Sequence record: CP132210.1
Reading direction: 5' to 3' (one strand)
Length of the DNA: 64,000 bases
Origin: a plasmid
In this document: positions 26,398 through 50,010 of the stretch, one piece after another
How the letters are laid out: every line of letters starts with the position of its first letter
How positions within the stretch are numbered: position 1 is the first letter of the stretch
Notes under the pieces: model-generated
Databases searched by the model: none
Told to the model about the DNA's origin: nothing
The model's input: only the letters and a program-made list of their open reading frames with translations
Program-made: the position numbers and the translations under genes

Positions 26398-26550
26398 TAG
26401 AGATACTCCTAAGTTGAGGTACAGATAAACGCACAGAAAGGATAAATGCGGTCAATCTGTAACCTGACATCCCGAAGTGCCCAAAATGGACAGTTACAGC
26501 GTTTTATGTTTAGTCAAGGTGAGCTATATTTAAGCCATCTTAGTCGCTCT

Positions 26551-26600
26551 GCGGCTATAAGTGAGATAGCTGGTCTCCGAAAACAAACAGCATCTAGTCT
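26551..26600 (+). promoter_or_regulatory. Conserved operon-head regulatory repeat, copy A
   Basis: Core GATAGCTGGTCTCCGAAAACAAACAGCA; one of 8 related copies (see findings). Confidence 0.5.
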
Positions 26601-26620
26601 TATGCCGTATGGCATTTCTT

Positions 26621-26688
26621 AACCCCAAACCGGGGGCTTCTCCCGGTTTTTCGGGTGTTGCCCCTGCTTTAACTATAGGAGCAACACC
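26621..26688 (+). promoter_or_regulatory. Bipartite 5'-UTR hairpin module (GC stem-loop plus SD-sequestering hairpin)
   Basis: AACCGGGGG-cttct-CCCGGTT stem, then GTGTTGCCCCT pairing with AGGAGCAACAC immediately before ATG 26689. Confidence 0.55.
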
Positions 26689-27009
26689 ATGCACATCATC
26701 ACTTTCATTGTAGTTCTGCTTGCATCTCTGGGCGCATTGTACGTGGGCGCGAAGGCATTTGCTTATTCCTTCATCGTTCTCGCTAAAGTGTTCCAGCGTA
26801 TCGGTTTGTTCCTTTGGAACAAATTTGCAGTTCCTGCAATGCGGTCTGTGCAGGCCGTCATCAAAGAACGCGCTGCTAAGGCTAAACAAGCCAAAGCAGT
26901 CGTTGGGCCTGAGGTAACTCAAGCTCAAGAAGTCGCTAAACAAGAACCTGATTGGGATTATCTCGAAATTCCGACTTACCTGCGTAAAGGAAAGGACCTT
27001 GTTTGGTAA
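26689..27009 (+). CDS. Small membrane protein
   Basis: 106 aa, N-terminal TM, Lys/Ala-rich middle. Confidence 0.5.
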   Translation: MHIITFIVVLLASLGALYVGAKAFAYSFIVLAKVFQRIGLFLWNKFAVPAMRSVQAVIKERAAKAKQAKAVVGPEVTQAQEVAKQEPDWDYLEIPTYLRKGKDLVW

Positions 27010-27040
27010 TAACTGTCGCTGAGCAATCTTCGACACTTTC

Positions 27041-27103
27041 AAACCCATCGGGGCAATCATTCCCCGATGGGGATGTTGCCCCTTTTTAATTGGGAGCAAC
27101 ATC
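27041..27103 (+). promoter_or_regulatory. Bipartite 5'-UTR hairpin module
   Basis: CCCATCGGGG-caatcatt-CCCCGATGGG perfect stem then TTGCCCC...GGGAGCAACATC-ATG. Confidence 0.5.
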
Positions 27104-27205
27104 ATGGAGATCATGGAGCTCGCTATCATCGTTTTGTGCATCCCTACAGGTTGGGCAATCTCTCGTCCTTTCGTGAGAATTGCTGAATCGTTCGGCTGCT
27201 GCTGA
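27104..27205 (+). CDS. Possible 33-aa hydrophobic peptide
   Basis: ATG directly after a UTR hairpin module; MEIMELAIIVLCIPTGWAISRPFVRIAESFGCC; below ORF-track size cutoff. Confidence 0.3.
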   Translation: MEIMELAIIVLCIPTGWAISRPFVRIAESFGCC

Positions 27206-27319
27206 TAGTCAACGCAAAGGGAGGGGGTCCCCTCTCTTTCTGGTCAAGCCTCTGTGGCTTGTCCTCCAAGCCTTCTGGTGTCAGTTGGCTTTGACGACAA
27301 GCTACAGGGGGAATGTCGA

Positions 27320-27505
27320 ATGCAACAGAATATTCATGTTTACGACGATCACGCTGGCATCATCTATCTATCTGATGGACGCGAGGTGAAATTTGATCCG
27401 AAACTGTACTCCAGCTCCTACCAGGCGCACAGCGAAGCAGTGAAGTGGGCCAAAGAAACCGGGGTCATTGGTCAAGACGACGATGTGGCGATGTTCGTCC
27501 ATTGA
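27320..27505 (+). CDS. Hypothetical 61-aa protein
   Basis: Internal ATG of ORF 27254..27505 with AGGGGG RBS 9 nt upstream. Confidence 0.4.
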   Translation: MQQNIHVYDDHAGIIYLSDGREVKFDPKLYSSSYQAHSEAVKWAKETGVIGQDDDVAMFVH

Positions 27506-27548
27506 GGGAGTAGCCTCCAGAGAGGGGCTACTCTCCTCGTTTCCTAAA

Positions 27549-27704
27549 AGTCTACTTACTCATGGTGAAGCCATCAGTAAGCAGATTTTGTCCTCTCTGA
27601 GGGCGAAAACGTGCGATAGCTGGTCGCCAAAAACAAACAGCAAATTAACGTTAATTTTACTAGCCCAACCGGGCGCATCCGCCCGGTTCGGGACGTGGTG
27701 CGCC
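27549..27704 (+). promoter_or_regulatory. Conserved operon-head regulatory repeat, copy B (long form)
   Basis: About 155-bp block nearly identical to 31905-32026 and 49897-50010; contains TTGTCCTCTCTGAGGGCGAAAACGTGCGATAGCTGGTCGCCAAAAACAAACAGCA. Confidence 0.55.
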
Positions 27705-27725
27705 TGTCAAAATAGGAGCGCACCT

Positions 27726-28694
27726 ATGTCTCAATACTCTCAATTTTCAGTAAGCAAGGTTTTCGGTATGCCAAGCATTCCGGAGAAGGTAACTGCCATC
27801 GGCTACGCTGACGGTTCAAACCCCTTCATCCCTGCCACTGATACAAACTACGTTTTCCGCAAAGAGTTTCTGCGAGAGGTCTTGGCCTATCTCAAAGAGC
27901 CTGGCGGTGACGCATTGTTCGTAACCGGACCTACCGGGTCCGGTAAAACCTCAGGTATCACCGAGATCGCTGGTCGTCTTAACTGGCCTGTTCAGCAAAT
28001 CACTGCCCACGGGCGGATGGAACTGACAGATCTGATTGGACATCATGCTCTGGTCGCGGAAAAACCGGGTCAACCGCCTGTCATGAAGTTCATGTATGGA
28101 CCTCTGGCAGTCGCTATGCGTGAAGGCCATCTTCTCCTCATCAACGAGGTTGATTTGGCTGACCCTGCCGAGCTGGCTGGTCTCAACGATGTTCTTGAAG
28201 GACGTCCTCTTGTGATCGCTCAGAATGGTGGGGAAATCATCAAGCCACACCCGATGTTTCGTGTGGTCGTTACTGGTAACTCTACGGGGTCCGGTGATGC
28301 TTCTGGTTTGTACCAGGGGGTGATGATGCAGAACCTCGCTGCTATGGATCGCTATCGTTTTACCAAAGTAGGGTATGCGGATGAGGAAGCTGAACTCAGC
28401 ATTCTTGGCCGTGTTACTCCGAAACTTCCGGAAAATGTGCGGAAGGGGATGGTTCGGATTGCTAATCAGGTCCGCAAACTGTTTCTTGGTGAAAACGGAG
28501 AAGATGGTCAGCTCAGCATCACCATGTCCACCCGGACGTTGGTACGTTGGGCAAAACTGTCTCTTGCGTTCCGTGGTGCCCCCAACGCCCTTGAATACGC
28601 TCTGGATCAAGCTCTGCTTATCCGGGCGGCCAAAGAGGAGCGTGAAGCCATCCTGCGTGTTGCGAAGGATGTGTTTGGGGATCAGTGGCGCTAA
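27726..28694 (+). CDS. MoxR/CobS-like AAA+ ATPase
   Basis: Start ATG 27726 in ORF 27468..28694; Walker A GPTGSGKT, Walker B LLLINEVD; about 322 aa; paired with downstream vWA protein. Confidence 0.75.
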   Translation: MSQYSQFSVSKVFGMPSIPEKVTAIGYADGSNPFIPATDTNYVFRKEFLREVLAYLKEPGGDALFVTGPTGSGKTSGITEIAGRLNWPVQQITAHGRMELTDLIGHHALVAEKPGQPPVMKFMYGPLAVAMREGHLLLINEVDLADPAELAGLNDVLEGRPLVIAQNGGEIIKPHPMFRVVVTGNSTGSGDASGLYQGVMMQNLAAMDRYRFTKVGYADEEAELSILGRVTPKLPENVRKGMVRIANQVRKLFLGENGEDGQLSITMSTRTLVRWAKLSLAFRGAPNALEYALDQALLIRAAKEEREAILRVAKDVFGDQWR

Positions 28695-28705
28695 GGGGGG
28701 GACGC

Positions 28706-29611
28706 ATGAAGAAAAATGACTGTTTGTGCCGTCGTTACACATTCACGGATGCGTCAACGTCGGAAACATTCGAGGTATTTATTGGCTACAAAGTTCTCCG
28801 AGAACCCAGCCCCTCGGGGCCAGGCCAATTCACGATGGTGAAGCTAAACCGAACCGTCACGGATGGAAAAGCTGAAAACTGGTCTGAGACAAAGCTCGAA
28901 GTACCATTTGAAGCAAACGGCCCGGACACGATCCCAATGTCCTACAAGGACAAAGAAAGCCAGTATGTGTCACAGTTTCTCAGCCAGGGGTACACCTTTC
29001 TGGATGAGGTGCTGGTAAACGCAGAGACACAGACTGTGCTAGAAGGGGGGGGTGTTTCAGCCGGACAAGCAGCCAGCTTGGGGTCTATCAACTGGCTGTT
29101 ATCTCCGCCTTCTGAGTTACCTCCAGGTGACATAAACCTCTTCAAAGGTTTTGTTACTGGGGTTTTTGCCAAAGGAGCCAGTTTAATCGGCTTTGAGGTT
29201 GCTCGGAACGAAAGCTCAAACGACTTGCTACCCAGTGTGCTGATGCGTACTGACAGCGGTTATGAGCTTGGGGTTAGCACTGGGCTAGGCGAGAACACTA
29301 TCCATCCAGCCACGCTGGAAGGCGCTGGTGAACTCCGCCCGGAACATGGTCACAAACCCCTGCTGATGCTGATTTACCTGCAACAACGTTTCGCGGATGA
29401 CTTTTCAAACGTAGAGAAGCCGCTGGTGGCATTCTGTGATGAACAGGGTGATACCTTCGACTACGAGCGTTTTGATTCACTAAAACCCCTCATTGAACGG
29501 TTTGGTTTCAGCTATGACGAAGTAAGAGCAGATGCAGAAAGGCTTGGCCTTGTATCTGAGCTGATTCGCCTAGCAGAGATCGACGCCGAACAAGAGGATC
29601 TCTTTTTTTAA
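28706..29611 (+). CDS. Hypothetical protein
   Basis: 301 aa; GGGGGGG RBS; follows AAA+ gene by 11 nt. Confidence 0.5.
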   Translation: MKKNDCLCRRYTFTDASTSETFEVFIGYKVLREPSPSGPGQFTMVKLNRTVTDGKAENWSETKLEVPFEANGPDTIPMSYKDKESQYVSQFLSQGYTFLDEVLVNAETQTVLEGGGVSAGQAASLGSINWLLSPPSELPPGDINLFKGFVTGVFAKGASLIGFEVARNESSNDLLPSVLMRTDSGYELGVSTGLGENTIHPATLEGAGELRPEHGHKPLLMLIYLQQRFADDFSNVEKPLVAFCDEQGDTFDYERFDSLKPLIERFGFSYDEVRADAERLGLVSELIRLAEIDAEQEDLFF

Positions 29612-29780
29612 CCCTTGCGGGGCTTACTCCCCAACATGGGCTTGGCCCTCTCCAAGTAATTTGGAAGTCAATTTGGTTGGCGGGTAACTCCGCCAACTCT
29701 TACTAAACCCCACGGGGGCACCAATGCCCCGATGGGGAATGGTGTCCTCTAAACGTTCATTCGTGAATTGGAGAAACACC

Positions 29781-30776
29781 ATGTCAACTGATAGCAAATC
29801 CCTTATAACCCGCATTGCCTCTCGGTACGGTGTTGATAGCACCAAGTTTTTTGAAACCTTGAAAGCAACTGCGTTTAAGCAACGTGATGGCTCCGCTCCA
29901 ACCAACGACCAAATGATGGTTCTTCTGGTTGTGGCAGAGCAATACAACCTTAATCCGTTTACTCGGGAGATCTATGCGTTTCCTGATAGACAAAACGGGA
30001 TCATCCCGGTAGTGGGTGTTGACGGTTGGAGCCGCATCATCAACGAGCATCCCCAGCATGATGGTGTCGAGTTCGTGTATGCGGACAAGATGGTCAGAAT
30101 GGAGGGAGCAAACGTTGATTGCCCTGAGTGGATAGAATGCGTGATTTACCGTAAGGACAGATCACGCCCTATCCGGATCAAGGAGTTCATTGACGAAGTT
30201 TACCGAGGGCCAGCGCATAAAAATGGGCAAAACGGCCCTTATGTTGTCAATGGCCCTTGGCAAACACACACCAAGCGTCAACTCCGGCACAAGTCACTGA
30301 TCCAGTGTTCTCGTGTCGCGTTCGGTTTCAGTGGTATTTACGACCAAGATGAAGCAGAACGTATCCGTGAAATGGAGCAGGCATCAGCCATTAACCCGGC
30401 CATTGCAAGCCTCCCTTCACCGGCACAAGTTCATAGCCAGGAGCCTTTGGCTATTGAGCACAAAGAGCTTGACCCGATCCTAATCAAACTCGCAAATCGC
30501 GCTATTGCTGAAAACGCATGGTCTGCGGCGCATGAGTATTTGAAGGGACGGTATGAGGGTTCGGAACTGCAATATGCGACTCAATTCCTTCGTGAGAAGG
30601 AGATGGATCAAATGGAGCCTCCGAAACCTGACTACCAGGAAGCGCACGAGCAAGCCTCCACTGCTGGTGGTTCTGCGAATGCCGAACCTGTTGCCGCCGA
30701 AGTCGTGCCACCTTTGAGTGACGAGGACATGCTCCTTGTTGCAGAAGAGGAGGGTGCGCAAGGCTGTTATTACTAA
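29781..30776 (+). CDS. recT: RecT-family single-strand annealing protein
   Basis: Start 29781 after UTR module; RecT-like core incl. NGPWQTHTKRQLRHKSLIQCSRVAFGF; followed by YqaJ-type exonuclease. Confidence 0.7.
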   Translation: MSTDSKSLITRIASRYGVDSTKFFETLKATAFKQRDGSAPTNDQMMVLLVVAEQYNLNPFTREIYAFPDRQNGIIPVVGVDGWSRIINEHPQHDGVEFVYADKMVRMEGANVDCPEWIECVIYRKDRSRPIRIKEFIDEVYRGPAHKNGQNGPYVVNGPWQTHTKRQLRHKSLIQCSRVAFGFSGIYDQDEAERIREMEQASAINPAIASLPSPAQVHSQEPLAIEHKELDPILIKLANRAIAENAWSAAHEYLKGRYEGSELQYATQFLREKEMDQMEPPKPDYQEAHEQASTAGGSANAEPVAAEVVPPLSDEDMLLVAEEEGAQGCYY

Positions 30777-30838
30777 CCCCAACGGGGGGGACTCCCCCGC
30801 AGGGGGAGGTCTCCCTCCTAACCACTGGAGAGAGGTCC

Positions 30839-31849
30839 ATGAAAATAGTCAACCTATCGCAACGCGAGGAAGATTGGCTTGCTTGGCGGCGTCAAGGTGT
30901 AACAGCCACTGACGCCGCTATCCTGCTCAATCGGTCTCCGTACAAAACCCGATGGAGGTTGTGGGCCGAGAAGACTGGGTATGCGCGTGAAGTCGATCTG
31001 AGTCTCAATCCGCTGGTTCGCCGGGGGATAGAAAACGAAGATGCTGCAAGACGCGCTTTCGAGGAGAAGTATGATGACATGCTGCTCCCCGTCTGTGTCG
31101 AATCGGTTCAATACCCGCTCATGAGGGCCTCCCTGGACGGCCTGAGAGACAACGGGGAACCCGTCGAGCTGAAAAGCCCGAGTGCGACTGTTTGGGAAGA
31201 TGTTTGTGCAGAGAAAGCAAACAGCAAGGCATATCAGCTTTATTACCCGCAGGTGCAACACCAGCTCCTGGTAACGGGTGCCAAGCAAGGCTGGCTAGTC
31301 TTCTACTTTGAAGGTCAGATTCAGGAGTATCCAATACTCCGAGACGAAGCCATGATTCAAGAAATCTTGGCCGAAGCTAAAAAGTTCTGGCAACAGGTAG
31401 TAGACAGGAAGGAGCCCGACAAAGATCCGGAAAGAGACCTCTACATACCGCAAGGTGAAGAGGTCAATCGCTGGATTGCTGCTGCTGAGGAATACCGCCT
31501 CTATGATGCAGAGATTCAGGAGCTGAAACAGCGACTGGCTGAGCTTCAAGAAAGGCAAAAACCTCATCTCGACACAATGAAGTTCCTCATGGGGGAATAC
31601 TTCCATGCCGACTATTGCGGTGTGATGGTGACGAGATACAAAGCGGCTGGCCGGGTAGACTACAAAAGGCTGTTGGCAGATAAGGCGTCGGGCGTGAAGC
31701 CTGAGGATGTTGACCAATACAGAGAGAAGTCATCAGAGCGGTGCCGCGTAACGGTTACTGGTTCGGTGAAGCCACGGTACATTGTTGATGAGGACGTATT
31801 GGCTCCTCTTGATGATTTGCCGGAAGAAGTAGAGACATTCTACTGGTGA
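30839..31849 (+). CDS. YqaJ-like viral recombinase exonuclease (PD-(D/E)xK)
   Basis: N-terminal QREEDWLAWRRQGVTATDAAILLNRSPYKTRWRLWAEKTG matches YqaJ domain pattern; LDGL and ELKSP catalytic-region motifs. Confidence 0.65.
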   Translation: MKIVNLSQREEDWLAWRRQGVTATDAAILLNRSPYKTRWRLWAEKTGYAREVDLSLNPLVRRGIENEDAARRAFEEKYDDMLLPVCVESVQYPLMRASLDGLRDNGEPVELKSPSATVWEDVCAEKANSKAYQLYYPQVQHQLLVTGAKQGWLVFYFEGQIQEYPILRDEAMIQEILAEAKKFWQQVVDRKEPDKDPERDLYIPQGEEVNRWIAAAEEYRLYDAEIQELKQRLAELQERQKPHLDTMKFLMGEYFHADYCGVMVTRYKAAGRVDYKRLLADKASGVKPEDVDQYREKSSERCRVTVTGSVKPRYIVDEDVLAPLDDLPEEVETFYW

Positions 31850-31904
31850 GTGGGGGGGTCCCCCGCTTTCCCTTGGTGATTCTGAGAGTCGCCAACGGAA
31901 AGCA

Positions 31905-32026
31905 AGATTTTGTCCTCTCTGAGGGCGAAAACGTGCGATAGCTGGTCGCCAAAAATAAACAGCAAATTAACGTTAATTTTACTAGCCCAACCGGGCGCAT
32001 CCGCCCGGTTCGGGACGTGGTGCGCC
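31905..32026 (+). promoter_or_regulatory. Conserved operon-head regulatory repeat, copy C (long form)
   Basis: Near-identical to copy B; preceded by GGGGG-GT-CCCCC hairpin and GCTTTCC...GGAAAGC inverted repeat. Confidence 0.55.
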
Positions 32027-32046
32027 CCCAACTATTGGAGTGCATC

Positions 32047-33324
32047 ATGACTAAAGTGAACCATCTACAAAGCCTCTGTGTTATCCACGTTGACTTTGAT
32101 ATTTGGAGTGGACAAACCCGTTTGTCTGCATCTGATCTCAAGCTGGGCGAGGGTGGTGAAATTCCACCGGAGAAAGTAGCTCAACTGGGGAGTAAGAAGA
32201 TCTGTGATCCGGCGAAGCTGAAAGGCTTTCACCGCCTGAAAACAGAAACCCGTCGTCTCCTGTTGAAATTCGGTATGCCGTTCATGAACGGATTTGCCGT
32301 CCCAGTCAGCAAGACCGATGAAATCTGTAACAAGCTGAATGAGATCAGCTTTCAGTTCAACCAACTGAAACAGGACTTCATCAACGGTTACAACAACGCC
32401 GTGGATGAATGGTGTCAGGAAAACCCTGAGTACGAACGAGCTATCCGTGCCGGATCTCTTCCAAAGGAAACGGTCGAGGAGCGGATTGGCTTTGAGTTCC
32501 AGGTGTTCATGATCCAGCCGGTGAACGATGATGAGGCCAACGCCAAAAGCCTTAACCGTAAGGTTGAGCGCTTGGGTGACGATCTCATCTCCGAAGTGGT
32601 TCAGGAAGCGAATAAGTTCTATATGGAACGTTTGGCCGGTCGAGACCAATGTGCTGTCACGACTCGGCTGACTCTCCGTAATATCCGCGACAAGGTGGAT
32701 GGACTTAGCTTCTTGAACAGCGCTTTTAACCCTCTGGTAAAGCTGCTCGACCAAACCCTCCGGGGATATGAGAAACATGCCGATGGTCGAAACATCGTTG
32801 CGCCTTTCTTCTATCAGGTCGTGGCCGCTGTGCTGATCATGAGCGAGAGAGACCGCATCGAGCAGTATGCCAATGGCTCAATTACTGTAGAGAGCATGGC
32901 TAATAACATTGGCGGTTCGGAAGCCCAAATGGGGGACTGTTCCAAAGATGAAAAGCCTGAACGGAAAAGCGATACATCCGGTGAGCCCACTCTTGCATTT
33001 GAGGGGGGCGAAACCAAGACGCAACAGGTAGGCGGAAACGACTCTGTTCTATCCGAACAGACTAACAGCAATGGTAACGTTGTTGACCTGGATGAAGACA
33101 TCGACAACTTCTTCAAGAGTTTTGCAGAGCGAGGCGAGGGTGAATCGGAAGATGAATCCAAGGCCGGTGATGCGATTCAAGAAGAGCGAGTTGAAGTTGA
33201 GGATGAGCCTGTTTTGCCTGGGGATACTCCGGTAGAGCAAGAACCTATCCAAGAGCTACCCACTGAGGAACCCCTCATCCAGGTGCCGCCTAAAACTGAT
33301 GATGATGACGACTGTTTCTTCTAA
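32047..33324 (+). CDS. Hypothetical protein with acidic C-terminal tail
   Basis: Start ATG 32047 within ORF 32017..33324; 425 aa; C-terminus D/E-rich ending DDDDDCFF. Confidence 0.5.
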   Translation: MTKVNHLQSLCVIHVDFDIWSGQTRLSASDLKLGEGGEIPPEKVAQLGSKKICDPAKLKGFHRLKTETRRLLLKFGMPFMNGFAVPVSKTDEICNKLNEISFQFNQLKQDFINGYNNAVDEWCQENPEYERAIRAGSLPKETVEERIGFEFQVFMIQPVNDDEANAKSLNRKVERLGDDLISEVVQEANKFYMERLAGRDQCAVTTRLTLRNIRDKVDGLSFLNSAFNPLVKLLDQTLRGYEKHADGRNIVAPFFYQVVAAVLIMSERDRIEQYANGSITVESMANNIGGSEAQMGDCSKDEKPERKSDTSGEPTLAFEGGETKTQQVGGNDSVLSEQTNSNGNVVDLDEDIDNFFKSFAERGEGESEDESKAGDAIQEERVEVEDEPVLPGDTPVEQEPIQELPTEEPLIQVPPKTDDDDDCFF

Positions 33325-33408
33325 TAGTCACTTCAACTAAATCGACCCGGAGGGGATAGCCATTCCCTCCAGGGGTGGACTATCTCCTTCCCTACCAGGA
33401 GAAAAGAT

Positions 33409-39729: not shown

Positions 39730-39733
39730 GCCT

Positions 39734-41215: not shown

Positions 41216-41291
41216 GCCATCAACCAAACCCAACCGGGTGCATCCGCCCGGTTCGGGACGTGGTGCGCCCCCAAACTATTTGGAGTGCATC

Positions 41292-41594: not shown

Positions 41595-41671
41595 GAACCA
41601 CTTTAAACCCATCGGGGCCATTACTTCCCGATTGGGACGGTAGTGGCCTCTCAACCGAAAGGAGAGAGTTC

Positions 41672-43297
41672 ATGGCTACTATCGTAAACACCAAGTTAGG
41701 AGAACATCGAGGCAAGAAGCGCGTCTGGCTGGAAGGCCAAAAGCTGCTGCGTGAGGGGTACTATCCTGGCATGAAGTACGATCTGGAGTTGAAAGATTCC
41801 CAGGTTGTGCTTCGCGTCAAAGAGGAAGGTAAATTCACAATCAGTAAGCGTGAGCGCAATGGCCGAGTGTCTCCAATCATCGATCTGACCGCGCAAGAGC
41901 TCGCTACCGTTTTTGACGGTGTTGAGATGCTCCGCGTGTTCATTCGGAATGGCGCAATTGTAATCTCCGCTCATCATCAACAAGAGCGAGTGATCGAGCG
42001 CGTCAACCGGCTTATCAGCAAGCTGGAGAATGGAGAATCGCTTTCGGTATGCAGCCTCTTTCATGGGGGTGGGGTGCTTGATAAAGCGATTCACGCCGGT
42101 TTTCACAAATCGGGAATTGCCAGCGCCATATCAGTGGCCGTAGAGATGGAGGGTAAATACCTCGATTCGTCTTTGGCAAATAACCCGGAGCTTTGGAACG
42201 AAGATTCAATTGTTATCGAATCGCCAATCCAGGCTGTGAATCTCAGCAAGCGGCCACCGCAGGTGGATGTTTTGATGGGGGGGATACCATGTACTGGCGC
42301 ATCAAAGTCAGGTCGCAGTAAGAACAAATTGGAGTTTGCCGAATCGCATGAGGAGGCCGGGTCCATGTTCTTTAACTTCCTGCAATTCGTAGAAGCGCTT
42401 AACCCAGCCGTTGTGCTGATTGAGAACGTGCCTGAGTACCAGAACACTGCTTCGATGGAAGTGATCCGTTCGGTACTCTCTTCGTTGGGTTACTCCCTAC
42501 AAGAGCGCATTCTCGACGGCAATGAGTTTGGGGTGATTGAACGCCGCAAGCGTCTTTGTGTTGTTGCGCTTTCCCACGGGATCGACGGTTTTGAACTTGA
42601 AAAGGTTCAGCCTGTTCGTACCAAGGAAAGCCGCATCCAGGACATTCTTGAGCCGGTGCCGCTCGATTCTGAACGTTGGAAGTCATTTGACTATCTGGCT
42701 GAGAAGGAGTTGAGAGACAAAGCTGCTGGCAAGGGATTTTCTCGTCAGCTTCTGACTGGCGACGATGAGTTTTGCGGCACCATAGGGAAGGACTATGCAA
42801 AATGCAGAAGTACCGAACCTTTCATTGTTCATCCGGAACAGCCTGAGTTATCTCGCATTTTTACACCGACAGAACATTGTCGAGTGAAAGGGATACCTGA
42901 GGAACTCATCCAAGGTCTGTCGGACACCGTAGCTCATCAGATTCTCGGGCAATCGGTAGTCTTTCCCGCGTTCGAGGCTTTAGCCCTCGCATTAGGGAAC
43001 AGTCTTTGGAGCTGGGTGGGAATGATGCCAATCATGGTCGAAGTCGTGGATGAATCACAGCCGGTGATCGGTGGTGATGACTTCCATTGGGCAACGGCAT
43101 TGGTTGACGCAAAGGGCACGCTAAAGCTGTCACCGGCAGCTCAAAAACAGGGGATGCCCTTCAACATTATGGACGGTCAATTGGCTGTCTATTCACCTAA
43201 CGGAACCCAAAAGAGCTGCGGCCATAAGCCTTGCGAATATCTTCCGGTAATGATGTCCGGAGACGCAATCATGGTCACTTCATCTTTGGTTCATTAG
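41672..43297 (+). CDS. Orphan DNA cytosine-5 methyltransferase with extra N- and C-terminal domains
   Basis: Motif I LFHGGGVLD, PC motif GGIPCTGASKSG, ENV motif LIENVPE; 541 aa. Confidence 0.75.
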   Translation: MATIVNTKLGEHRGKKRVWLEGQKLLREGYYPGMKYDLELKDSQVVLRVKEEGKFTISKRERNGRVSPIIDLTAQELATVFDGVEMLRVFIRNGAIVISAHHQQERVIERVNRLISKLENGESLSVCSLFHGGGVLDKAIHAGFHKSGIASAISVAVEMEGKYLDSSLANNPELWNEDSIVIESPIQAVNLSKRPPQVDVLMGGIPCTGASKSGRSKNKLEFAESHEEAGSMFFNFLQFVEALNPAVVLIENVPEYQNTASMEVIRSVLSSLGYSLQERILDGNEFGVIERRKRLCVVALSHGIDGFELEKVQPVRTKESRIQDILEPVPLDSERWKSFDYLAEKELRDKAAGKGFSRQLLTGDDEFCGTIGKDYAKCRSTEPFIVHPEQPELSRIFTPTEHCRVKGIPEELIQGLSDTVAHQILGQSVVFPAFEALALALGNSLWSWVGMMPIMVEVVDESQPVIGGDDFHWATALVDAKGTLKLSPAAQKQGMPFNIMDGQLAVYSPNGTQKSCGHKPCEYLPVMMSGDAIMVTSSLVH

Positions 43298-43357
43298 TAA
43301 CACTCCGGGGCAATGCCGAAAGGCCTTTGCCCCGGCCTATCCGAAAGGGGAGTGATC

Positions 43358-43789
43358 ATGAAAATCGAAACTGTTGTGCCTTTACCTCCCGAGGATTCAG
43401 GCCTTCAACACTGCATTGTCAGGTTCCATAACCGCAATATGGATTCCAAGCGAAAAGACACAGCCCGTTTTTTCAGGAGGGAGCCGGTTATGATCGTAAA
43501 TCCAGAGACCAAAGCAAAGGTTCTCCGATATGCGATGGGCAACCCAGGGAATTTATCCATCACCAAGCTGGCGGTCGCGCTGGATTACGATGCGGTTGAT
43601 GTCCTGGGGGTTCGTTTTAAAGACACTGTAAATCTTGAGGTTCGCAGAGCCAGGCGCTGGGAAGTCTGGCAGTGGTTCTGGAACCATCCGGATCAAAGTG
43701 TTCAACTGTCAATCAAACTGGGCGTGGTTGGCGCTGTGTTAGGAGTCATGGGCTTCTTGACCGGCGTAGCCCCGTTTCTCTTGGGATAA
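43358..43789 (+). CDS. Hypothetical protein with C-terminal TM helix
   Basis: Start ATG 43358 in ORF 43313..43789. Confidence 0.45.
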   Translation: MKIETVVPLPPEDSGLQHCIVRFHNRNMDSKRKDTARFFRREPVMIVNPETKAKVLRYAMGNPGNLSITKLAVALDYDAVDVLGVRFKDTVNLEVRRARRWEVWQWFWNHPDQSVQLSIKLGVVGAVLGVMGFLTGVAPFLLG

Positions 43790-43861
43790 ACCAATAAGCC
43801 GTTAACGGGCAATGTAAGCCCGGAGACGGCTTACATTGCTCTCTCGTAAGTGGAGAGTTAA

Positions 43862-44416
43862 ATGAACACATTAGAACAACTTGTAAATCAGAGGGTGCTT
43901 GAGGAAGGCCTGAAAAAGGCGAAGCCATTGGCCGCGCAAATGGGGCTTGAATCAGTGCCTGATGAGATGCTTGAGATGATCTGCCCGAACTTGAACTACT
44001 CTGGGCAATTTACGCCAGCTCTTTACGCAAGGTTCCAAAGCGTAAAGCAATTGCTGAAAGAGCTGTCGGAACAAACCTCACCTAAGCACGGGCATATTGT
44101 AAAGTTTACCAACCAATATGGGAGCTACGATGAGTCAGCTTTGCTGTTCAAAGAGGGCGATGTCAGAAACCAGAACTTGGTTGCTTGTGTGGGCGGGAAA
44201 ACGCTAAACCTCGGAGAGCTAGAGCTTCAAGATTACGGGCTCAATATGCACATCGGTTGCGGTGGGCCATTTGAGCCGGTCTCAGAAGCGCAGATTCAGT
44301 CTTTGTCTGAGTTTGACCTCTATGAGACGACTTACAGGTTCTGGGGCCAGAGTCCATGTGGAAACGGAATGTTAGACATCACCGTACCTATGAAGCGCTG
44401 GTTCTTGACTGTGTAG
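43862..44416 (+). CDS. Hypothetical protein
   Basis: 184 aa; upstream AATGTAAGCC-cggagac-GGCTTACATT hairpin and SD hairpin. Confidence 0.45.
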   Translation: MNTLEQLVNQRVLEEGLKKAKPLAAQMGLESVPDEMLEMICPNLNYSGQFTPALYARFQSVKQLLKELSEQTSPKHGHIVKFTNQYGSYDESALLFKEGDVRNQNLVACVGGKTLNLGELELQDYGLNMHIGCGGPFEPVSEAQIQSLSEFDLYETTYRFWGQSPCGNGMLDITVPMKRWFLTV

Positions 44417-44547
44417 ATTCAATCTGAGTGCGCCGAGAAATCGGCGTACCGTTCCCTTGAGAAGGGTAATCGGCGCAGGGGGAAACCCCGCGCTTTCCCA
44501 AGTTTCTCGGATTCCCAGGATGCTTCGGAAAGTGCCTTAGGCGCTCA

Positions 44548-44590
44548 AGTGCGGTAGCTGGCTGCCAAAAACAAACAGCAAATTATCAAC
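44548..44590 (+). promoter_or_regulatory. Conserved operon-head regulatory repeat, copy F
   Basis: GTGCGGTAGCTGGCTGCCAAAAACAAACAGCAAATTATCAAC. Confidence 0.45.
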
Positions 44591-44648
44591 CCTGACGGGA
44601 GCACCTCCTGTTAGGGGGTCTCCGTCATAAACTGAATGGAGATATAGC

Positions 44649-45035
44649 ATGTCTAAAAACGTCAATGATGTTTTTTCAAACCGATCTTCCTTGGAGTGTA
44701 CTGTGAATGCAGCGCTGGACCGTCGTATTGGTCTGCGTGTCGGGTTCCCTCATTACCGAGAAGGAGCAAACGGTGTGGTTTGTGAGATCGAAGCAGAGTA
44801 CCCATTGCTGAACACTCATTCGGGTGTTGTATGGACTCAGCTCGATGAACTCAACAGTTACACCATCAAAAAAAACCAATCACTCATTGATCACATTGAT
44901 AATGCGATCGCTGAACTGTTGAAACACAAGGCTCGTCTACAGCTTGATATTCAAAAGCTGCGAGACGGTGACATTGATCTGGTGAAACAGGCCAAGCAGC
45001 AATACGAAGACAACCAGATGTCGAGTACCCGCTAG
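44649..45035 (+). CDS. Hypothetical protein
   Basis: 128 aa. Confidence 0.45.
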   Translation: MSKNVNDVFSNRSSLECTVNAALDRRIGLRVGFPHYREGANGVVCEIEAEYPLLNTHSGVVWTQLDELNSYTIKKNQSLIDHIDNAIAELLKHKARLQLDIQKLRDGDIDLVKQAKQQYEDNQMSSTR

Positions 45036-45120
45036 TAAGGTCTGATAGCCAGATTCAATTTTAACCCTACCGGGGTGCTTTCCCGGAAGGGATGGGCACC
45101 CTGCTTATCCAGGAGGCCCT

Positions 45121-47574
45121 ATGCAACAAGCATTAAACTTTGACCTACCAGAACAACCAACCCCAGTGCTCTTGCGAGGGGATAAGTGGGACTCTGTTTG
45201 GTCAGAACTGACTGATAACGAGGATTTGAACTTCGTTGATGCCAGTAGAGGAACCAGCTTGTCATCGTTGATCACGTCATCGGTTGAAGCCATTCACACG
45301 GCCTTGAACGATGGGTGGACCATGATGGTCGGCTATTCCAGTGGTAAGGATTCTGAAACGGTTTTGCATCTGTTTCTGATGGCTCTTGTCCGGGCGGTTA
45401 GGAGTGGAGCAACCATCAGCCAACACCACTTCATCTTGCACACTGACACACTGATAGAAAGCCCAGAAGTAAGATGGCTGGCGGATCAGAAACTGGCCGA
45501 GTTGGAGCGTTTCATTGTGAAGGAAAACCTTCCTCTGACCATCGTTCTGGCAAAGCCGGGGATCACGCAGAGTTGGACGGGCCGAATCCTTACGGGGAGG
45601 GGGTTGCCTACATTTTCCAACTCTTCGGCCCGTCAGTGTAGCCAAGAACTCAAAATCACCTCAGCCAAAAGAGCGAAGGCGGCTTATATGCGAGAACTCC
45701 CCAAGGATGTTCGGCAGAAAGTGTGCCTCCTGTTGGGGAGCCGTGATGCTGAAAGCGCTATTCGTGCAGCCAACATTGCAAAGCAGCGAGGAAGCTCAAA
45801 TCGCGTCATTAAGACGAAAGATGGGGGGGAGCTGTATGTGGTGAAAAACTGGTTGGCGAGTGATGTCTGGGAGTTCTTGCTATCTGCTGGCATGGGCTCA
45901 CCATACCCCCTGCCAAGTTACCTAGAGAGCAATGTCACTACGGCAGAGCTCTACAAGGCAGCGACGGGGGAGTGCGTGTGGTCGGCAACAGAGAAAAAGG
46001 CCAGTGATGCGTGTGGTGCTCGCTTCGGTTGCTGGGCCTGCCAAGCTGTAGGGTTGGATAAGTCGATGGAGACATTGCTTGCCACAGACCCTGAAAGGCA
46101 TGGCTACATGTCTGGGCTGAACCGCATCCAGCGCTACCTGGCAAAACGCCGGTACGCTTGGGAAGATCGCCATCCCGTAGGTCGAACGATTTATGAGGGG
46201 GGTTACATCAAAATACAGCCGGACGTTTACAGTCCTGTTTTCCTTGAGCGATTGCTTCATGTCTGTTGCAGCATGGACTACATGGAGCAAAAAAGAGCTG
46301 ATGAGCTTGCTTACAAGCTGGCTACTGGGCAAGCCGAGGATAACGACTGGAACCGTCGAATGGCAGAGCCGCAATTCCGGATCATATCGGAAGAAGCTTT
46401 AGTCCATATCGACTTCATGTGGGCCTTCCATCATTTCAATGATAAGCCTTTCCATGCCCTGGAGATTTACCACAGGGTTTGGTCGATGGGTGATCTGGAT
46501 TTGCTGGAAGATGAGCCGCAGTGCGAAACCGTTCCTCAGTCACCAATTCCGAAACCATTGTGGTTGAGAGTTGGGCGCTGGGGCGATGGTTCGCTGTCTG
46601 ATGGCTTGGCCGACCCGTTAGCGGAAATGGCTTACTTTGACGGCGGGGATGACCCGTTGGCAGTGAAAGTTATCAATACCGCAGATGGAAAGAGAAGGGT
46701 GGTTTGTTTCGCAGAGGATGATGAGGTGAAGGTCGATCCCGACTCCGCTGCATTCATCATCTGGAATGAATACCCGCGACTTAGGGAGTCGGTACTAAAG
46801 GGAAATTATACGCCCGGTAGTGCTGCTCAGTTCTACCTTCGGTTCGGAGCCATCCAGCTTGCGAAAGGAAAAGGCGCTTTGTATCACCGCATGATGCAAA
46901 GAGGTCAAACCTACCACCAGATGGGCCTTACAGGGCTACAGACGATGGAAGGAATCCAACAGCGCAAGGACCTCAAAGTGCTTTGTGATGACAAGTACAA
47001 AGATCTGGTGAAGCGAAAAATCAAGGGAAGACTGGCTACGGTACGCTGGTGGATCAACTTGCACTTAACGTTCAAGTACCACCTGCACCACCGGACTCCG
47101 ACGGGGTTATTCGTCGAGAGGCAACTTGACCAGGAAGCAATGGAAGAGCAGAAACGGCACCAGGAGCGATGGTTTAACTACGTGACTGACGCGATGCTCT
47201 GTTACTCCAGCGCATTCTGTATGAGCGTCATGGAGGGGCGAGAGGGAAGCGGAAACGCCAACATCCGTCGTTACATGGCTGCGACCAGAAGAAAGGCTTA
47301 TACGGCCCTCTGTGAGCTCCTACGCCACACTAACGCCCTCTGGGCGACAGATGTGGCCTTGAGTGCTGTAGGGAAGTATGAGGAGATACAGGCAGCCCTA
47401 ACCGAAGGTTCCGCGCTGGCTACCTACCTCGACTGGATCAACCTACTATCAAAACGTCATCCAGCCTCTTTGAAGCGACATGTCAGAACGATGATCAAAG
47501 TGGTTCAACGACTACATCGCCGCGACGACACAATGTTGCAAAGAGGACAGCAAGGCTTGTCCTTGGCCGCATAA
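45121..47574 (+). CDS. PAPS-reductase-like PP-loop family protein (DndC-like), large
   Basis: 817 aa; PP-loop GYSSGKDSETVLH near N-terminus; long C-terminal extension. Confidence 0.55.
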   Translation: MQQALNFDLPEQPTPVLLRGDKWDSVWSELTDNEDLNFVDASRGTSLSSLITSSVEAIHTALNDGWTMMVGYSSGKDSETVLHLFLMALVRAVRSGATISQHHFILHTDTLIESPEVRWLADQKLAELERFIVKENLPLTIVLAKPGITQSWTGRILTGRGLPTFSNSSARQCSQELKITSAKRAKAAYMRELPKDVRQKVCLLLGSRDAESAIRAANIAKQRGSSNRVIKTKDGGELYVVKNWLASDVWEFLLSAGMGSPYPLPSYLESNVTTAELYKAATGECVWSATEKKASDACGARFGCWACQAVGLDKSMETLLATDPERHGYMSGLNRIQRYLAKRRYAWEDRHPVGRTIYEGGYIKIQPDVYSPVFLERLLHVCCSMDYMEQKRADELAYKLATGQAEDNDWNRRMAEPQFRIISEEALVHIDFMWAFHHFNDKPFHALEIYHRVWSMGDLDLLEDEPQCETVPQSPIPKPLWLRVGRWGDGSLSDGLADPLAEMAYFDGGDDPLAVKVINTADGKRRVVCFAEDDEVKVDPDSAAFIIWNEYPRLRESVLKGNYTPGSAAQFYLRFGAIQLAKGKGALYHRMMQRGQTYHQMGLTGLQTMEGIQQRKDLKVLCDDKYKDLVKRKIKGRLATVRWWINLHLTFKYHLHHRTPTGLFVERQLDQEAMEEQKRHQERWFNYVTDAMLCYSSAFCMSVMEGREGSGNANIRRYMAATRRKAYTALCELLRHTNALWATDVALSAVGKYEEIQAALTEGSALATYLDWINLLSKRHPASLKRHVRTMIKVVQRLHRRDDTMLQRGQQGLSLAA

Positions 47575-47575
47575 A

Positions 47576-47605
47576 AGGCCCTCCTTCGGGAGGGCTTTTT
47601 CTTTT
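47576..47605 (+). terminator. Rho-independent terminator
   Basis: AAGGCCCTCC-TTCG-GGAGGGCTT stem then TTTTCTTTT. Confidence 0.8.
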
Positions 47606-47687
47606 GCACCCCAAAAGGGCAATTACAGCGTTTTACCCTTTTAAGGTGGCTGTCATACTCTTTGCTCATTGTCAGCGCTTGCTGGCT

Positions 47688-47725
47688 ATAACGGTAGCTG
47701 GCCCAAAACAGCAATAACCTAACCC
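47688..47725 (+). promoter_or_regulatory. Conserved operon-head regulatory repeat, copy G (diverged)
   Basis: GGCTATAACGGTAGCTGGCCCAAAACAGCAATAACC; whole 47608-47730 region parallels 26468-26620. Confidence 0.45.
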
Positions 47726-47775
47726 CTCGGGAGGCAACCCTCCTGGGTTCTCTCCCATAACCAAAGGAGAGAAGC

Positions 47776-47979
47776 ATGAGCCTAGACAAGTTAAGTCGGC
47801 TGGTGGACCAACAGCGAAAGACCCAGGATGAAATCAACAACGAAGTCATTCTGGCCGTCAAAGAGGTGTTGTCTACAAATTCCATCAGCTTGGCCCGTGA
47901 GCTTGTTGGGTGTGTCCCGCAAGATCATCCATTCCATCCGTTTTTGCTCGCCATAGCTAAGCAGCTTGACCCGAGATAA
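47776..47979 (+). CDS. Hypothetical 67-aa protein
   Basis: AAAGGAGAGAAG RBS. Confidence 0.4.
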   Translation: MSLDKLSRLVDQQRKTQDEINNEVILAVKEVLSTNSISLARELVGCVPQDHPFHPFLLAIAKQLDPR

Positions 47980-48050
47980 CGAAGTAACCCAACCGGGTAC
48001 ACCAAGGCCCGGTCGGGTTTGGTGTACCTCCAGCCAATTTAGGAGGCACT

Positions 48051-48656
48051 ATGTCTGATTCAAATTTCGGCTTTCTAGCTCTGGCCTTGCGCCAACGCCT
48101 GATCAAGCGCTGGTCGCTGATGCACTCTGTTCAACCAGAGTCTGTGTTGGAGCACAGCGCTGTTGTTACCTTGCTTTCCTACCTGGCTGGCAATATCGCC
48201 ATTCAGCAAGGGAAGTCGGTGGATCTGGCAATCATGCTGGCTCATGCGTCGTTGCATGATGCAGCCGAGGTTCTTTGTTCGGATGTTGTCACGCCGGTCA
48301 AGAAAGCAAATGCTGTTTTGCAGCGTGAGTTTGAACGACTGGAAAAGGCCGCAGAGGACAAACTTATCCAGACTCTTCCCGAAGAACTCCAGGATGCAGT
48401 TTCCAGAGCCTTTGCTCCCGGTGGCTATGAACAATCACTGGTTAAGGCCTGTGATACCTACTCCGCTTACATCAAGTGCAAACTTGAGGTGGCCGCAGGT
48501 AATGGCATTGAGTTCCAAGATGCTCTCAGCAAAATGGAACGTATTGTTGCTCAGGTGAAATTGGACTTCCCGGAAATCGACGCTCTGGACAAATGGTTTG
48601 GTGACGGACTGGGCCATTCAGTAGATAAATTGCTGGCCGGGGGTAACGATGACTAA
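48051..48656 (+). CDS. yfbR: YfbR-like HD-domain 5'-deoxynucleotidase
   Basis: LIKRWSLMHSVQPESVLEHSAVV, HDAAEVLCSDVVTPVK and KACDTYSAYIKCKLEVAAGN match YfbR conserved blocks incl. HD motif. Confidence 0.75.
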   Translation: MSDSNFGFLALALRQRLIKRWSLMHSVQPESVLEHSAVVTLLSYLAGNIAIQQGKSVDLAIMLAHASLHDAAEVLCSDVVTPVKKANAVLQREFERLEKAAEDKLIQTLPEELQDAVSRAFAPGGYEQSLVKACDTYSAYIKCKLEVAAGNGIEFQDALSKMERIVAQVKLDFPEIDALDKWFGDGLGHSVDKLLAGGNDD

Positions 48657-48921
48657 TCCAATCGCTGGCGACATCAAGATTAAGAACTTTGGCCGTGACC
48701 GGAAATTTCGTTCGGTTGATGAGCTTCAAGGCACTTTGTCTGAACAGTACAAAGGTCAGCATGTCAGTGTCGTTTACCCTACAAAGCCTCACGGATTACT
48801 CCGTACCGTCTTTGTCAGTGTTGATGATGCCGGTGGCATAAATGAGACTTACGGAAAGCAGTCTCCAGTCGATTTTAATGCCATCAAAGATGACCTGTTT
48901 GTACCAAGTGTACTGAATTAA
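48649..48921 (+). CDS. Hypothetical protein
   Basis: 90 aa; start overlaps yfbR-like stop. Confidence 0.45.
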   Translation: MTNPIAGDIKIKNFGRDRKFRSVDELQGTLSEQYKGQHVSVVYPTKPHGLLRTVFVSVDDAGGINETYGKQSPVDFNAIKDDLFVPSVLN

Positions 48922-49000
48922 GCCGCAAGGCTTCTTAACCCCACGGGGGACATCTGTCCCTGAGGGGGGGGTGTCTCCCTCTGAAACTAAGGAGATACCA

Positions 49001-49861
49001 ATGATTAAGCAGCATTTTCAAAACGAACTGGTCAAATGCGGATACCCTGATGACCTGACCATTGAGTACCGTCTTGGGTACTGTCAGGGTGATGGAGTGG
49101 CATTCTACGGATGTTTGGGTGTTGATAATGCTCAGGCGTTGATGAAGCGCTTGTTAAGCACCACAAAGGGGCAAGTAGATGCTGTCAGCAGAGTGAAAAA
49201 CCTGATAGCACAAAAAGACATTGACAATATGTTTCTTGTCCTTCGTGAGTATGCTGAGCTCCAGTTCTGCGAACTGGACATCAACAGAAACAGCTACGGC
49301 CATCATTACAGTCACTGGAACACCATGCGTATTGATAGCAACGTAGACTTCACTGGGATCTTTCCTGATGATGACACCATGCTTGGAACAGGCATCGAAG
49401 GGATTGACCAAGCGATGTTAGAGCGTTGGCAAGGCATCTGGGAGCGTTTCGTGTTGGAACTGTCGGGTGATGTTAAACAGCTTTCCAAGAAGCTCGAATC
49501 CGACGGTTATGCGTTGATAGAAGCCTCGCCACACGAAGAGAAAGTGGTTTGGGAACGGACTACTCAAAATTACTTGGTGCGAGTGACAGAACTCCCTGAA
49601 CGGGATTTCGACATGGACCACTGGGATGACGACATCAGAGACCAAACGATTCGTTCTATCCTGGAGGGAAAAGAGCGAGTGCTTGGCCTACGTGTTGAGG
49701 TGCTCTCTCGTGAAAACGAGATTGTTCTGGGTGAAGAGAGTCTGCACGGTTTGACCGTTGCCAGTGATGACAAGAGCTACGCTGGCTACAGACGAGAACT
49801 CCTCCGGGGCGCTATCCAGCAAACCAGAGATTTTTTCTCTCGCCACCTCAAAGCGGCATAA
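49001..49861 (+). CDS. Hypothetical protein
   Basis: Start ATG 49001 in ORF 48971..49861; 286 aa. Confidence 0.5.
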   Translation: MIKQHFQNELVKCGYPDDLTIEYRLGYCQGDGVAFYGCLGVDNAQALMKRLLSTTKGQVDAVSRVKNLIAQKDIDNMFLVLREYAELQFCELDINRNSYGHHYSHWNTMRIDSNVDFTGIFPDDDTMLGTGIEGIDQAMLERWQGIWERFVLELSGDVKQLSKKLESDGYALIEASPHEEKVVWERTTQNYLVRVTELPERDFDMDHWDDDIRDQTIRSILEGKERVLGLRVEVLSRENEIVLGEESLHGLTVASDDKSYAGYRRELLRGAIQQTRDFFSRHLKAA

Positions 49862-49896
49862 CAAAGCAGGGGGAAACCCCTGCTTTACTCCCCAAG

Positions 49897-50010
49897 TCTC
49901 CTTACTCATGGTGAAGCCATCAGTAAGCAGATTTTGTCCTCTCTGAGGGCGAAAACGTGCGATAGCTGGTCGCCAAAAACAAACAGCAAATTAACGTTAA
50001 AAATCTCGGC
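49897..50010 (+). promoter_or_regulatory. Conserved operon-head regulatory repeat, copy H (long form)
   Basis: CATGGTGAAGCCATCAGTAAGCAGATTTTGTCCTCTCTGAGGGCGAAAACGTGCGATAGCTGGTCGCCAAAAACAAACAGCAAATTAACGTTAA, identical to 27563-27655. Confidence 0.55.

Follow-up and report, generated by a model that had tools for sequence, protein, structure and literature searches.

A repeated structured element that most likely works within the mRNA heads gene blocks in the AcaCD-dependent array of an IncA plasmid and recurs in other conjugative elements

Among the described systems closest to the locus reported here are the AcaCD promoters of IncA/C plasmids, a group of major importance in the carriage of carbapenemase and multidrug resistance genes. 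The AcaCD operator is a 29-bp box with a GCCC-N5-GGGC-like core that lies 62-66 nt 5' of the transcription start site, and in the IncC plasmid pVCR94 such boxes are found 5' of traL, traV, vcrx076, dsbC, traN, vcrx086/087, vcrx098 and vcrx114 (Carraro 2014, PMC4207636, Table S3). The sequence we analysed, 64,000 nt of record CP132210.1 (the window), corresponds to coordinates 33856-97855 of a 144-kb plasmid; it is an IncA backbone with a MOBH relaxase and MPF_F, and not an integrative and conjugative element of the ICEclc type, with which an initial annotation had compared it. In addition to AcaCD boxes the window carries a second repeat, here called the core repeat, which marks the heads of gene blocks in a one-directional array. 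We consider it likely that this repeat is a structured element, most probably acting as part of the mRNA, and not a promoter or an operator. With ~20 invariant nucleotides, 8-10 copies per replicon and a presence in three proteobacterial classes, it is a strong candidate for a control point that these elements share in plasmid establishment.

Several other described elements share features with the core repeat. The HK022 put RNA, lambda nut and rrn boxB-boxA are short nascent-RNA elements that combine variable-stem hairpins with conserved single-stranded sequence just after promoters, and the rrn antitermination sites also recur inside the operon; the put RNA is similar in size to the repeat, whose two-hairpin architecture spans ~60 nt. 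In tisB-type standby sites and ompA-leader-like stabiliser hairpins, a 5' stem-loop is followed by an unstructured region and then by a closed ribosome-binding site, the 5' end being formed by transcription or processing. The preQ1-I riboswitch and other small H-type pseudoknots resemble the repeat in their size, their 4-5-bp stem and loop nucleotides that can pair with the last part of an A-rich tail. The Frpo/ssi sites of F-like leading regions are, like the repeat, structured non-coding elements repeated in one orientation 5' of ssb, anti-restriction and methylase genes, and RfaH ops (JUMPStart) likewise occupies a leader position in long operons that carry mobile or accessory genes. The AcaCD box is already known, and the core repeat is apparently undescribed. 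Our literature search, with motif strings in full text and with the topics AcaCD, IncC, antitermination, leading region and single-stranded DNA (ssDNA) promoters, most subscription journals being outside its scope, found no description of it; Rfam 15 gave no hit in the whole window at gathering thresholds, and none overlapping any copy at E up to 5, with preQ1, c-di-GMP and motifs associated with phages or integrative and conjugative elements (ICEs) included. As a structured RNA family, the repeat would be a well-supported addition to the existing catalogue.

The initial annotation listed eight copies of the core, all on the + strand, and seven of these are full copies. Its degenerate pattern, searched with at most 3 mismatches, finds seven + strand sites (26563, 27613, 31935, 36371, 40771, 44551 and 49959) and gives 0 matches on shuffles, and a repeat search independently recovers the same core family. 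With a covariance model made from 72 copies, taken from the window and from other genomes, the seven sites score 51-55 bits, and nothing else in the window is significant. The eighth site, at 47687-47717, is a degenerate copy (E = 0.06) that keeps the TAGCTGG loop and CAGCA while its stem and A-rich linker are shortened. All copies lie on the + strand between 26.5 and 50 kb, and none was found when the other 80 kb of the 144-kb plasmid were scanned.

Three long copies had also been singled out as near-identical to one another. The similarity is real, with 96% identity over 127 nt between 27583-27709 and the 31.9-kb copy and 98% over 107 nt between 27549-27655 and the 49.9-kb copy, but it is mosaic, since only ~72 nt (27583-27654) are common to both pairwise matches. 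The 27.6-kb copy (27549-27709) is a chimera, its left part resembling the 49.9-kb copy (49895-50001) and its right part the 31.9-kb copy (31905-32031). This pattern of identities suggests recombination or gene conversion inside the repeat, which could shuffle gene blocks.

From 5' to 3', the module consists of a hairpin of any sequence (H1), 0-5 nt, a second hairpin (H2) with a 4-bp stem of any sequence and an invariant UAGCUGG loop, three variable nucleotides, and the tail AAAYAAACAGCA(U). Comparison between genomes supports this anatomy. An exact-pattern scan of one genome per species with TAGCTGG-N7-AAAYAAACAG, which fixes the loop and the tail, found at least 120 loci, and the comparative counts given here rest on the matches listed. 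These matches are bimodal: in 97 of the 140 unique listed matches all four flanking positions are paired, while of the other 43 about eight have three of the four positions paired and resemble further copies, the remainder being apparent chance matches in unrelated organisms. Across 72 distinct copies, 97.9% of the cells of the H2 stem are paired, a figure inflated by our choice of copies with at least three of the four pairs, which does not inflate the diversity of the stem: all four pairs change on both sides, giving 98 compensatory cells. None of 500 shuffles reaches the observed pairing score, and slid controls pair at 20-56%. The palindrome GCGATAGCTGGTCGC within the core, initially proposed as an operator, is therefore not a conserved palindrome but a hairpin whose stem undergoes compensatory change. 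H1 forms in 93 of 93 copies, mostly with 9-13 bp and a loop of 3-5 nt, ends 0-5 nt 5' of H2, and shows almost no sequence conservation. The two positions past the fixed tail, which were free in the search, are C in 88% and A in 91% of copies.

The variation also bears on the strand on which the module folds. The H2 stems contain 17 G-U pairs and 3 A-C pairs, and in the H1 region the more stable fold is that of the + strand in 68 copies and that of the other strand in 35 (Wilcoxon p = 1e-5), with mean folding z of -2.55 and -1.76, respectively. The strand-specific G-U pairs and the better + strand folding favour the mRNA-sense strand, and together with the helix-preserving compensatory changes they are what is generally found in structured RNAs. 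A test by inversion was uninformative, as the diverged Vibrio harveyi plasmid available for it is oriented as the IncA plasmid. The GCUG of the loop is complementary to the CAGC of the tail in 72 of 72 sequences, both sides being invariant except that G-C becomes G-U in six of the 72. The geometry may be that of an H-type pseudoknot, with two loop nucleotides (UA) before a 4-bp second stem, one (G) after it, and an A-rich linker of constant length (10 nt). When mismatches were tolerated, a scan yielded few variants of the loop or tail, none of them forming a compensatory pair, and a loop change in one copy, TAACTGG, is uncompensated; a looser hairpin scan for such variants was too noisy.

The second motif of the initial annotation proved to be the published AcaCD box. 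It is present where it had been proposed (4275, 21922, 26480, 36225 and 47609) and also at 8142, 9202 and 14846, its downstream genes are traL, traV, dsbC, traN, vcrx087, vcrx098 and vcrx114 as in the published promoters (Carraro 2014, PMC4207636), and the spacing from the 36225 box to the 47609 box is 11384 nt here versus 11383 nt in pVCR94. The core, in contrast, lacks the AcaCD-operator feature and is a separate element 3' of the transcription start, found at only three AcaCD promoters of the window and at five sites that have no box. Within the array only three boxes occur (Table 1), with the core 60-150 nt 3' of them. When published start sites are carried over from IncC pVCR94 to the IncA window by box alignment, the vcrx087 start is placed at ~26535-26538, 3-6 nt before H1 of copy 1, and the vcrx114 start at ~47666-47668, 3-5 nt before H1 of copy 7. 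At the promoter of the vcrx098 homologue (36222-36300) the predicted start coincides with the first base of the hairpin block that precedes copy 4, and not with a position just before H1; for the vcrx098 promoter itself no clear signal was obtained by 5' rapid amplification of cDNA ends (5'-RACE) (Carraro 2014, PMC4207636). In several beta- and gammaproteobacterial loci a -10-like hexamer is found ~8-15 nt 5' of H1, some of these loci having an activator-type box further upstream.

Published transcript data show how the copies without a box are expressed. By RNA-seq of pVCR94, the genes from vcrx087 to vcrx125 all have values of 0-50 (most 0-5) in the absence of AcaCD, rising to hundreds to thousands in its presence, and in published reverse-transcription PCR a cDNA primed in vcrx094 gave vcrx087, vcrx089 and bet, which indicates one shared transcript. 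The proposal of an array co-regulated by one element-encoded master activator is thus borne out by the AcaCD dependence of all its genes. Its division into about eight co-regulated operons is not, since the array has only three AcaCD boxes and therefore three AcaCD transcription units, the genes behind box-less copies being silent without AcaCD and sharing the upstream transcript. Internal copies are transcribed through from upstream and hence are not independent promoters. No sigma-70 -35/-10 pair with a spacing of 16-18 nt was found on the + strand of 26300-46000, and sigma-70-like sites are depleted there (2 observed vs 15.1 +/- 4.0 expected from shuffles), which fits selection against activator-independent transcription of the array. 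With two copies lying 3-6 nt 3' of a start and the internal copies lying inside AcaCD-dependent polycistronic transcripts, the core is most likely a transcribed leader and not an operator. Readings of the core as a sigma-54 or reverse-strand promoter were discarded, the spacing judged by eye not fitting either.

Downstream of the repeat, the distance to a gene start is nearly constant. Among the matches listed, 85 copies have a callable downstream open reading frame, with loop-to-start-codon distances clustering at 90-111 nt, and these reading frames belong to at least 35 unrelated families, examples being SSB, a PD-(D/E)XK-type exonuclease, the vcrx089 ATPase and PAPS-reductase/DndC-like proteins; there was no type IV secretion component among the downstream proteins inspected. 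A downstream hairpin module and gene start, as initially described, are confirmed for the window. Each copy runs straight into a ribosome-binding-site hairpin, with a start codon ~95-130 nt away and no terminator after the copy, which speaks against the family of small RNAs that had been offered as an alternative. About 50-70 nt 3' of the repeat stands a GC-rich hairpin (H3, flanked by AACCC...GGG), followed by a hairpin (H4) that closes the Shine-Dalgarno sequence and the spacer, and elements of both Beta- and Gammaproteobacteria have kept this module with its paired Shine-Dalgarno sequence. In H4 an upstream anti-Shine-Dalgarno arm pairs with the Shine-Dalgarno sequence and spacer, and the hairpin ends 0-3 nt before the start codon. 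No alternative pairing between the tail and H3 or H4 was found. Repeat families D3 and D4 are H3/H4-type modules that also precede array genes without the core repeat; their occurrence before many genes suggests systematic translational control or coupling.

Upstream, the copies other than the promoter-proximal ones follow a conserved block, which begins with a GC-rich hairpin right after the upstream stop codon and continues with a CTTTCC/GGAAAG stem (H0), whose arms are 30-47 nt apart, and a linker. These hairpins had been described as terminator-like. The GC-rich hairpin with CTTTCC and the CTTTCC...GGAAAG stem are indeed present, but they are not canonical terminators: they end in CTTTCC where an intrinsic terminator has a run of T, a terminator scan calls none of them, and terminator-like sites are not enriched (21 observed vs 20.4 expected). 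The only canonical terminator, at 47573-47605, stands exactly at a unit end, where the next AcaCD promoter begins. It has a symmetric arrangement of A-tract, GC hairpin and T-tract between the gene of an 817-aa protein and the AcaCD box, and is the region's sole weak Rfam match (ctRNA_p42d, 29.9 bits, below threshold), which we take as a generic terminator match. The linker before H1 measures 4-9 nt and reads purine-AUU, and an R-N-W-U-U (RNase E-type) match is present in 23 of 31 internal copies of the GGAAAG type.

The array in which the copies lie begins at 26.5 kb and runs in the + direction through mostly uncharacterised genes, among them vcrx089-090 homologues, bet, exo, DUF3150 and VWA genes, methylases, a DndC-like protein and a Zn-ribbon/Toprim primase; ssb is not annotated at this array position in the IncA plasmid. 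In the published host-defence-evasion operon, vcrx089-090 serve in anti-restriction and ssb-bet-exo in CRISPR evasion, and the genes act in the recipient cell. The region 26000-50500 is 100% identical to several IncA-type plasmids (top match pR210-2-VIM, NZ_CP034084.1) and 90-95% identical to hundreds more plasmids, mostly conjugative, of Enterobacterales and Vibrio. Beyond these, at least 100 or so further copies of the same architecture, usually ~95-125 nt 5' of start codons, are present in conjugative elements of Gammaproteobacteria (Vibrio, Shewanella, Photorhabdus, Edwardsiella, Providencia, Marinobacterium, Pseudoalteromonas, Alcanivorax and Azomonas), Betaproteobacteria (Sulfuritalea, Comamonas, Gallionella, Tepidimonas and Azonexus) and Alphaproteobacteria (Pseudovibrio). 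Often there are 2-4 copies per 8 kb, co-oriented in every multi-copy locus checked. The diverged MOBH/MPF_F plasmid of Vibrio harveyi has ten strong copies and one weak copy, all on the + strand and all in the post-traN array, and each strong copy lies ~90-125 nt before an annotated start codon. In the 8-kb blocks around beta- and gammaproteobacterial copies, the commonest window proteins are AcaB (DUF1845), with homologues in 20 motif-bearing loci, and the primase, with homologues in 13, betaproteobacterial ones included; between classes these proteins share only 33-55% identity, much below the conservation of the RNA motif. A phage origin was considered and rejected, as 2.9 million viral contigs yielded only 2 matches.

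With these observations in mind, one may tentatively propose that the repeat is a transcribed, cis-acting structured RNA module that heads each block of the AcaCD-dependent establishment and anti-defence array and acts at the head of the cistron. We favour this mechanism because it best accommodates where the start sites lie, the RNase E-like linker, the hairpin block, the closed ribosome-binding sites nearby and the lack of a clear 5'-RACE signal at the vcrx098 promoter. According to this proposal, initiation or endonucleolytic processing would leave H1 as a 5'-terminal hairpin that protects the downstream mRNA. The invariant H2, or the pseudoknot that it may form, would then, together with the unstructured CA-rich tail, recruit a conserved factor, most simply the 30S subunit or S1 at a standby site, so that in each block translation could start de novo on the first cistron even though its ribosome-binding site is closed.

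Several points weigh against the cistron-head mechanism. Twenty nucleotides kept invariant in three proteobacterial classes are more than a stabiliser hairpin or a standby site normally requires, and the tisB- and ompA-type elements are, in contrast to the repeat, not sequence-invariant families present 8-10 times per replicon; this extreme invariance, which the mechanism leaves unexplained, points to a partner. The longest runs complementary to Escherichia coli 16S or 23S rRNA are 7-mers, with duplex energies equal to those of shuffled sequence. The putative pseudoknot has no covariation in its favour, a loop change in one copy being uncompensated; the R-N-W-U-U match is short and is partly contained in the H1 stem; the distance to the start codon may simply reflect compact intergenic regions; and the start sites in the window are those of an IncC plasmid, placed by aligning boxes. 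A broader view, possible if somewhat doubtful, is that the repeat represents a new class of RNA element specific to conjugative elements, in which an invariant pseudoknot would directly engage RNA polymerase or the ribosome, or sense a conjugation-specific signal, for instance free ssDNA or SSB, and so switch on the whole establishment and anti-defence programme of IncA/C plasmids, A/C-like plasmids and many ICEs at host entry.

A rather unlikely alternative to the cistron-head mechanism is that the repeat loads a processive antitermination or anti-polarity complex: the nascent RNA of H1, H2 and the tail, by itself or together with a Nus-type factor, would modify its polymerase so that it crosses structured untranslated intergenic regions, and the internal copies would re-install the modification. 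Each of the three AcaCD units does have a copy at its head, and within the units further copies follow hairpin blocks; transcripts span several such blocks with undiminished RNA-seq signal, the two-hairpin architecture is of put-RNA size, and invariance in three classes fits a universal partner such as RNA polymerase. However, the hairpins before internal copies are not canonical terminators, terminator-like sites are not enriched, the one real terminator stands where a unit ends and a new promoter follows, tra operons under the same activator lack the motif, and the near-constant proximity to start codons is not what antitermination would lead one to expect. A further difference from the put, nut and rrn systems is that no gene resembling N or NusG was identified: when ~25 plasmid proteins were scanned against Pfam and NCBIfam, the matches were the primase, the DndC-like protein and KfrA and no NusG, KOW or recognisable RNA-binding domain, and the plasmid annotation holds no NusG or RfaH paralogue, the protein search not having been exhaustive. 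A small protein annotated as 'RNA-binding' matches nothing in Pfam or NCBIfam and looks ASCH-like by sequence alone. By eye, the tail is unlike the boxA consensus, which we take to be GCUCUUUAACAA-like. The betaproteobacterial copies GGCGGTAGC presumably equal the first 9 nt of ops, whose sequence we take to be GGCGGTAGnnTG. Identity with ops was nevertheless rejected: the equivalent of ops G5 varies (G 62, A 26, C 10, T 6), the last three bases differ, the flanks of the repeat form a covarying stem that ops does not need, and no NusG-like product is annotated.

Less probable still, the repeat may be a sensor, with the H2 pseudoknot and the A-rich linker forming an aptamer or a protein operator that gates the establishment genes, the signal being a small molecule or an SSB-type protein titrated by incoming ssDNA, by analogy with the preQ1-I architecture or the T4 gene 32 leader pseudoknot. 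An invariant loop and tail with freely covarying stems are a typical aptamer signature, the H-type geometry fits, and the downstream genes (ssb, bet, exo, vcrx089-090, methylases and primase) act in the recipient on entry. Opposed to this are the absence of any Rfam match, preQ1 included, the second stem without compensatory changes, and a gene context unrelated to that of preQ1-I; the motif occurs in conjugative elements only, with no instance seen beside ordinary chromosomal genes, a distribution unusual for a metabolite sensor, and the H3 and H4 hairpins, with which the tail has no alternative pairing, also occur without the motif.

It is quite improbable that the repeat works instead as ssDNA during conjugation, its hairpins in the transferred strand priming synthesis by the Zn-ribbon/Toprim primase or host DnaG or acting as an analogue of Frpo/ssi. 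The gene classes after the repeat are those of F-like leading regions, its loop contains CTG, a primase gene lies in the array and in the 8-kb blocks of other motif-bearing loci, and all copies of an element are on one strand. Yet the copies are confined to 24 kb of 144 kb, unlike general complementary-strand priming, and the array is more than 50 kb from mobI/oriT both ways round the plasmid, whereas Frpo/ssi belong to leading regions. The long -35/-10 hairpin of Frpo has no counterpart, the longest hairpins here (H0) having ~20 bp and no promoter hexamers. The G-U asymmetry favours the mRNA-sense strand, which, to judge from other plasmids, is probably not the one transferred, no mapping of the IncA/C nick site being found in the literature examined, and the precise placement just after transcription starts would go unexplained.

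The original interpretation, that each copy is a promoter or operator of an element-encoded master regulator, is highly improbable, since the core lies 3' of mapped starts, five copies have no box, no -35/-10 accompanies the core, the palindrome changes sequence while keeping its pairing and published read-through comes from upstream, even though all array genes depend on AcaCD, three copies are close to AcaCD boxes and AcaB, an AcaCD-induced regulator with homologues near 20 motif-bearing loci, is encoded beside copy 1.

Table 1. Positions of the repeat copies, the AcaCD boxes of the array and neighbouring features in the window
Feature	Position	Strand	Parts	Model score	Downstream gene or remarks
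Copy 1, promoter-proximal	26541-26593	+	H1 26541-26557; H2 26563-26577; loop TAGCTGG 26567-26573; tail 26578-26593	54.8 bits	vcrx087 homologue, start codon 26689
Copy 2, internal	27506-27643	+	GC hairpin 27506-27536; H0 27550-27586; H1 27586-27608; H2 27613-27627; tail 27628-27643	52.7 bits	vcrx089-like AAA ATPase, start codon 27726
Copy 3, internal	31852-31965	+	GC hairpin 31852-31864; H0 (GCTTTCC...GGAAAGC) 31865-31903; H1 31908-31930; H2 31935-31949; tail 31950-31965	51.1 bits	DUF3150 gene, start codon 32047
Copy 4	36285-36401	+	GC hairpin 36285-36300; H0 36301-36341; H1 36344-36366; H2 36371-36385; tail 36386-36401	51.2 bits	start codon 36468
Copy 5, internal	40667-40801	+	GC hairpin 40667-40686; H0 40685-40739 (encloses ACTTTCACATGTGAAAGT); H1 40744-40767; H2 40771-40785; tail 40786-40801	53.3 bits	start codon 40871
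Copy 6, internal	44475-44581	+	GC hairpin 44475-44493; H0 44490-44535 (3' arm overlaps H1); H1 44531-44545; H2 44551-44565 (stem GCGG/CTGC with one G-U pair); tail 44566-44581	51.9 bits	start codon 44649
Copy 7, degenerate, promoter-proximal	47671-47717	+	H1 47671-47686; loop TAGCTGG 47695-47701; 2-bp stem; short tail CAAAACAGCAA	15.8 bits, E = 0.06	start codon 47776
Copy 8, internal	49866-49989	+	GC hairpin 49866-49883; H0 49896-49932; H1 49932-49954; H2 49959-49973; tail 49974-49989	52.7 bits	start codon 50094; then primase gene
AcaCD box, vcrx087 promoter	26477-26501	+	-10 TATATT 26526-26531		family D7; shared with divergent acaB promoter
AcaCD box, vcrx098 promoter	36222-36246	+			predicted start ~36281-36284, directly before GC hairpin of copy 4
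Terminator and AcaCD box, vcrx114 promoter	47573-47630	+	canonical terminator 47573-47605; box 47606-47630		terminator closes vcrx098 unit
sfx	24775-25635	-			gene name from Burrus-lab papers
acaB	25747-26397	-			gene name from Burrus-lab papers; AcaB = DUF1845
Plasmid primase, 575 aa	50658-52385		primase-helicase Zn-ribbon, DUF7146 and Toprim_3 domains
D3/D4 module sites	27038-27106; 29703-29780; 40265-40325; 41229-41292; 41602-41672; 48934-49001				also L051, L059 and L111 among many loci

The genes from traD to traN occupy 1-24.7 kb of the window, followed by sfx, acaB and the array. An 18-bp near-perfect palindrome, ACTTTCACATGTGAAAGT (family D6), to which no link with the published RecHS site was made, occurs in four copies: at 4210-4227, just 5' of the AcaCD box at 4275; at 25229-25246, in sfx; at 40703-40720, in H0 of copy 5; and at 57347-57364, at the start of a tyrosine recombinase gene. 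It is also present at loci L076 and L097. The 817-aa protein encoded at 45121-47574 is DndC/PAPS-reductase-like in its N-terminal half (NCBIfam E = 4e-35, below the family cut-off), and similar PAPS-reductase-like genes also follow the repeat in Marinobacterium loci (L007 and L056).

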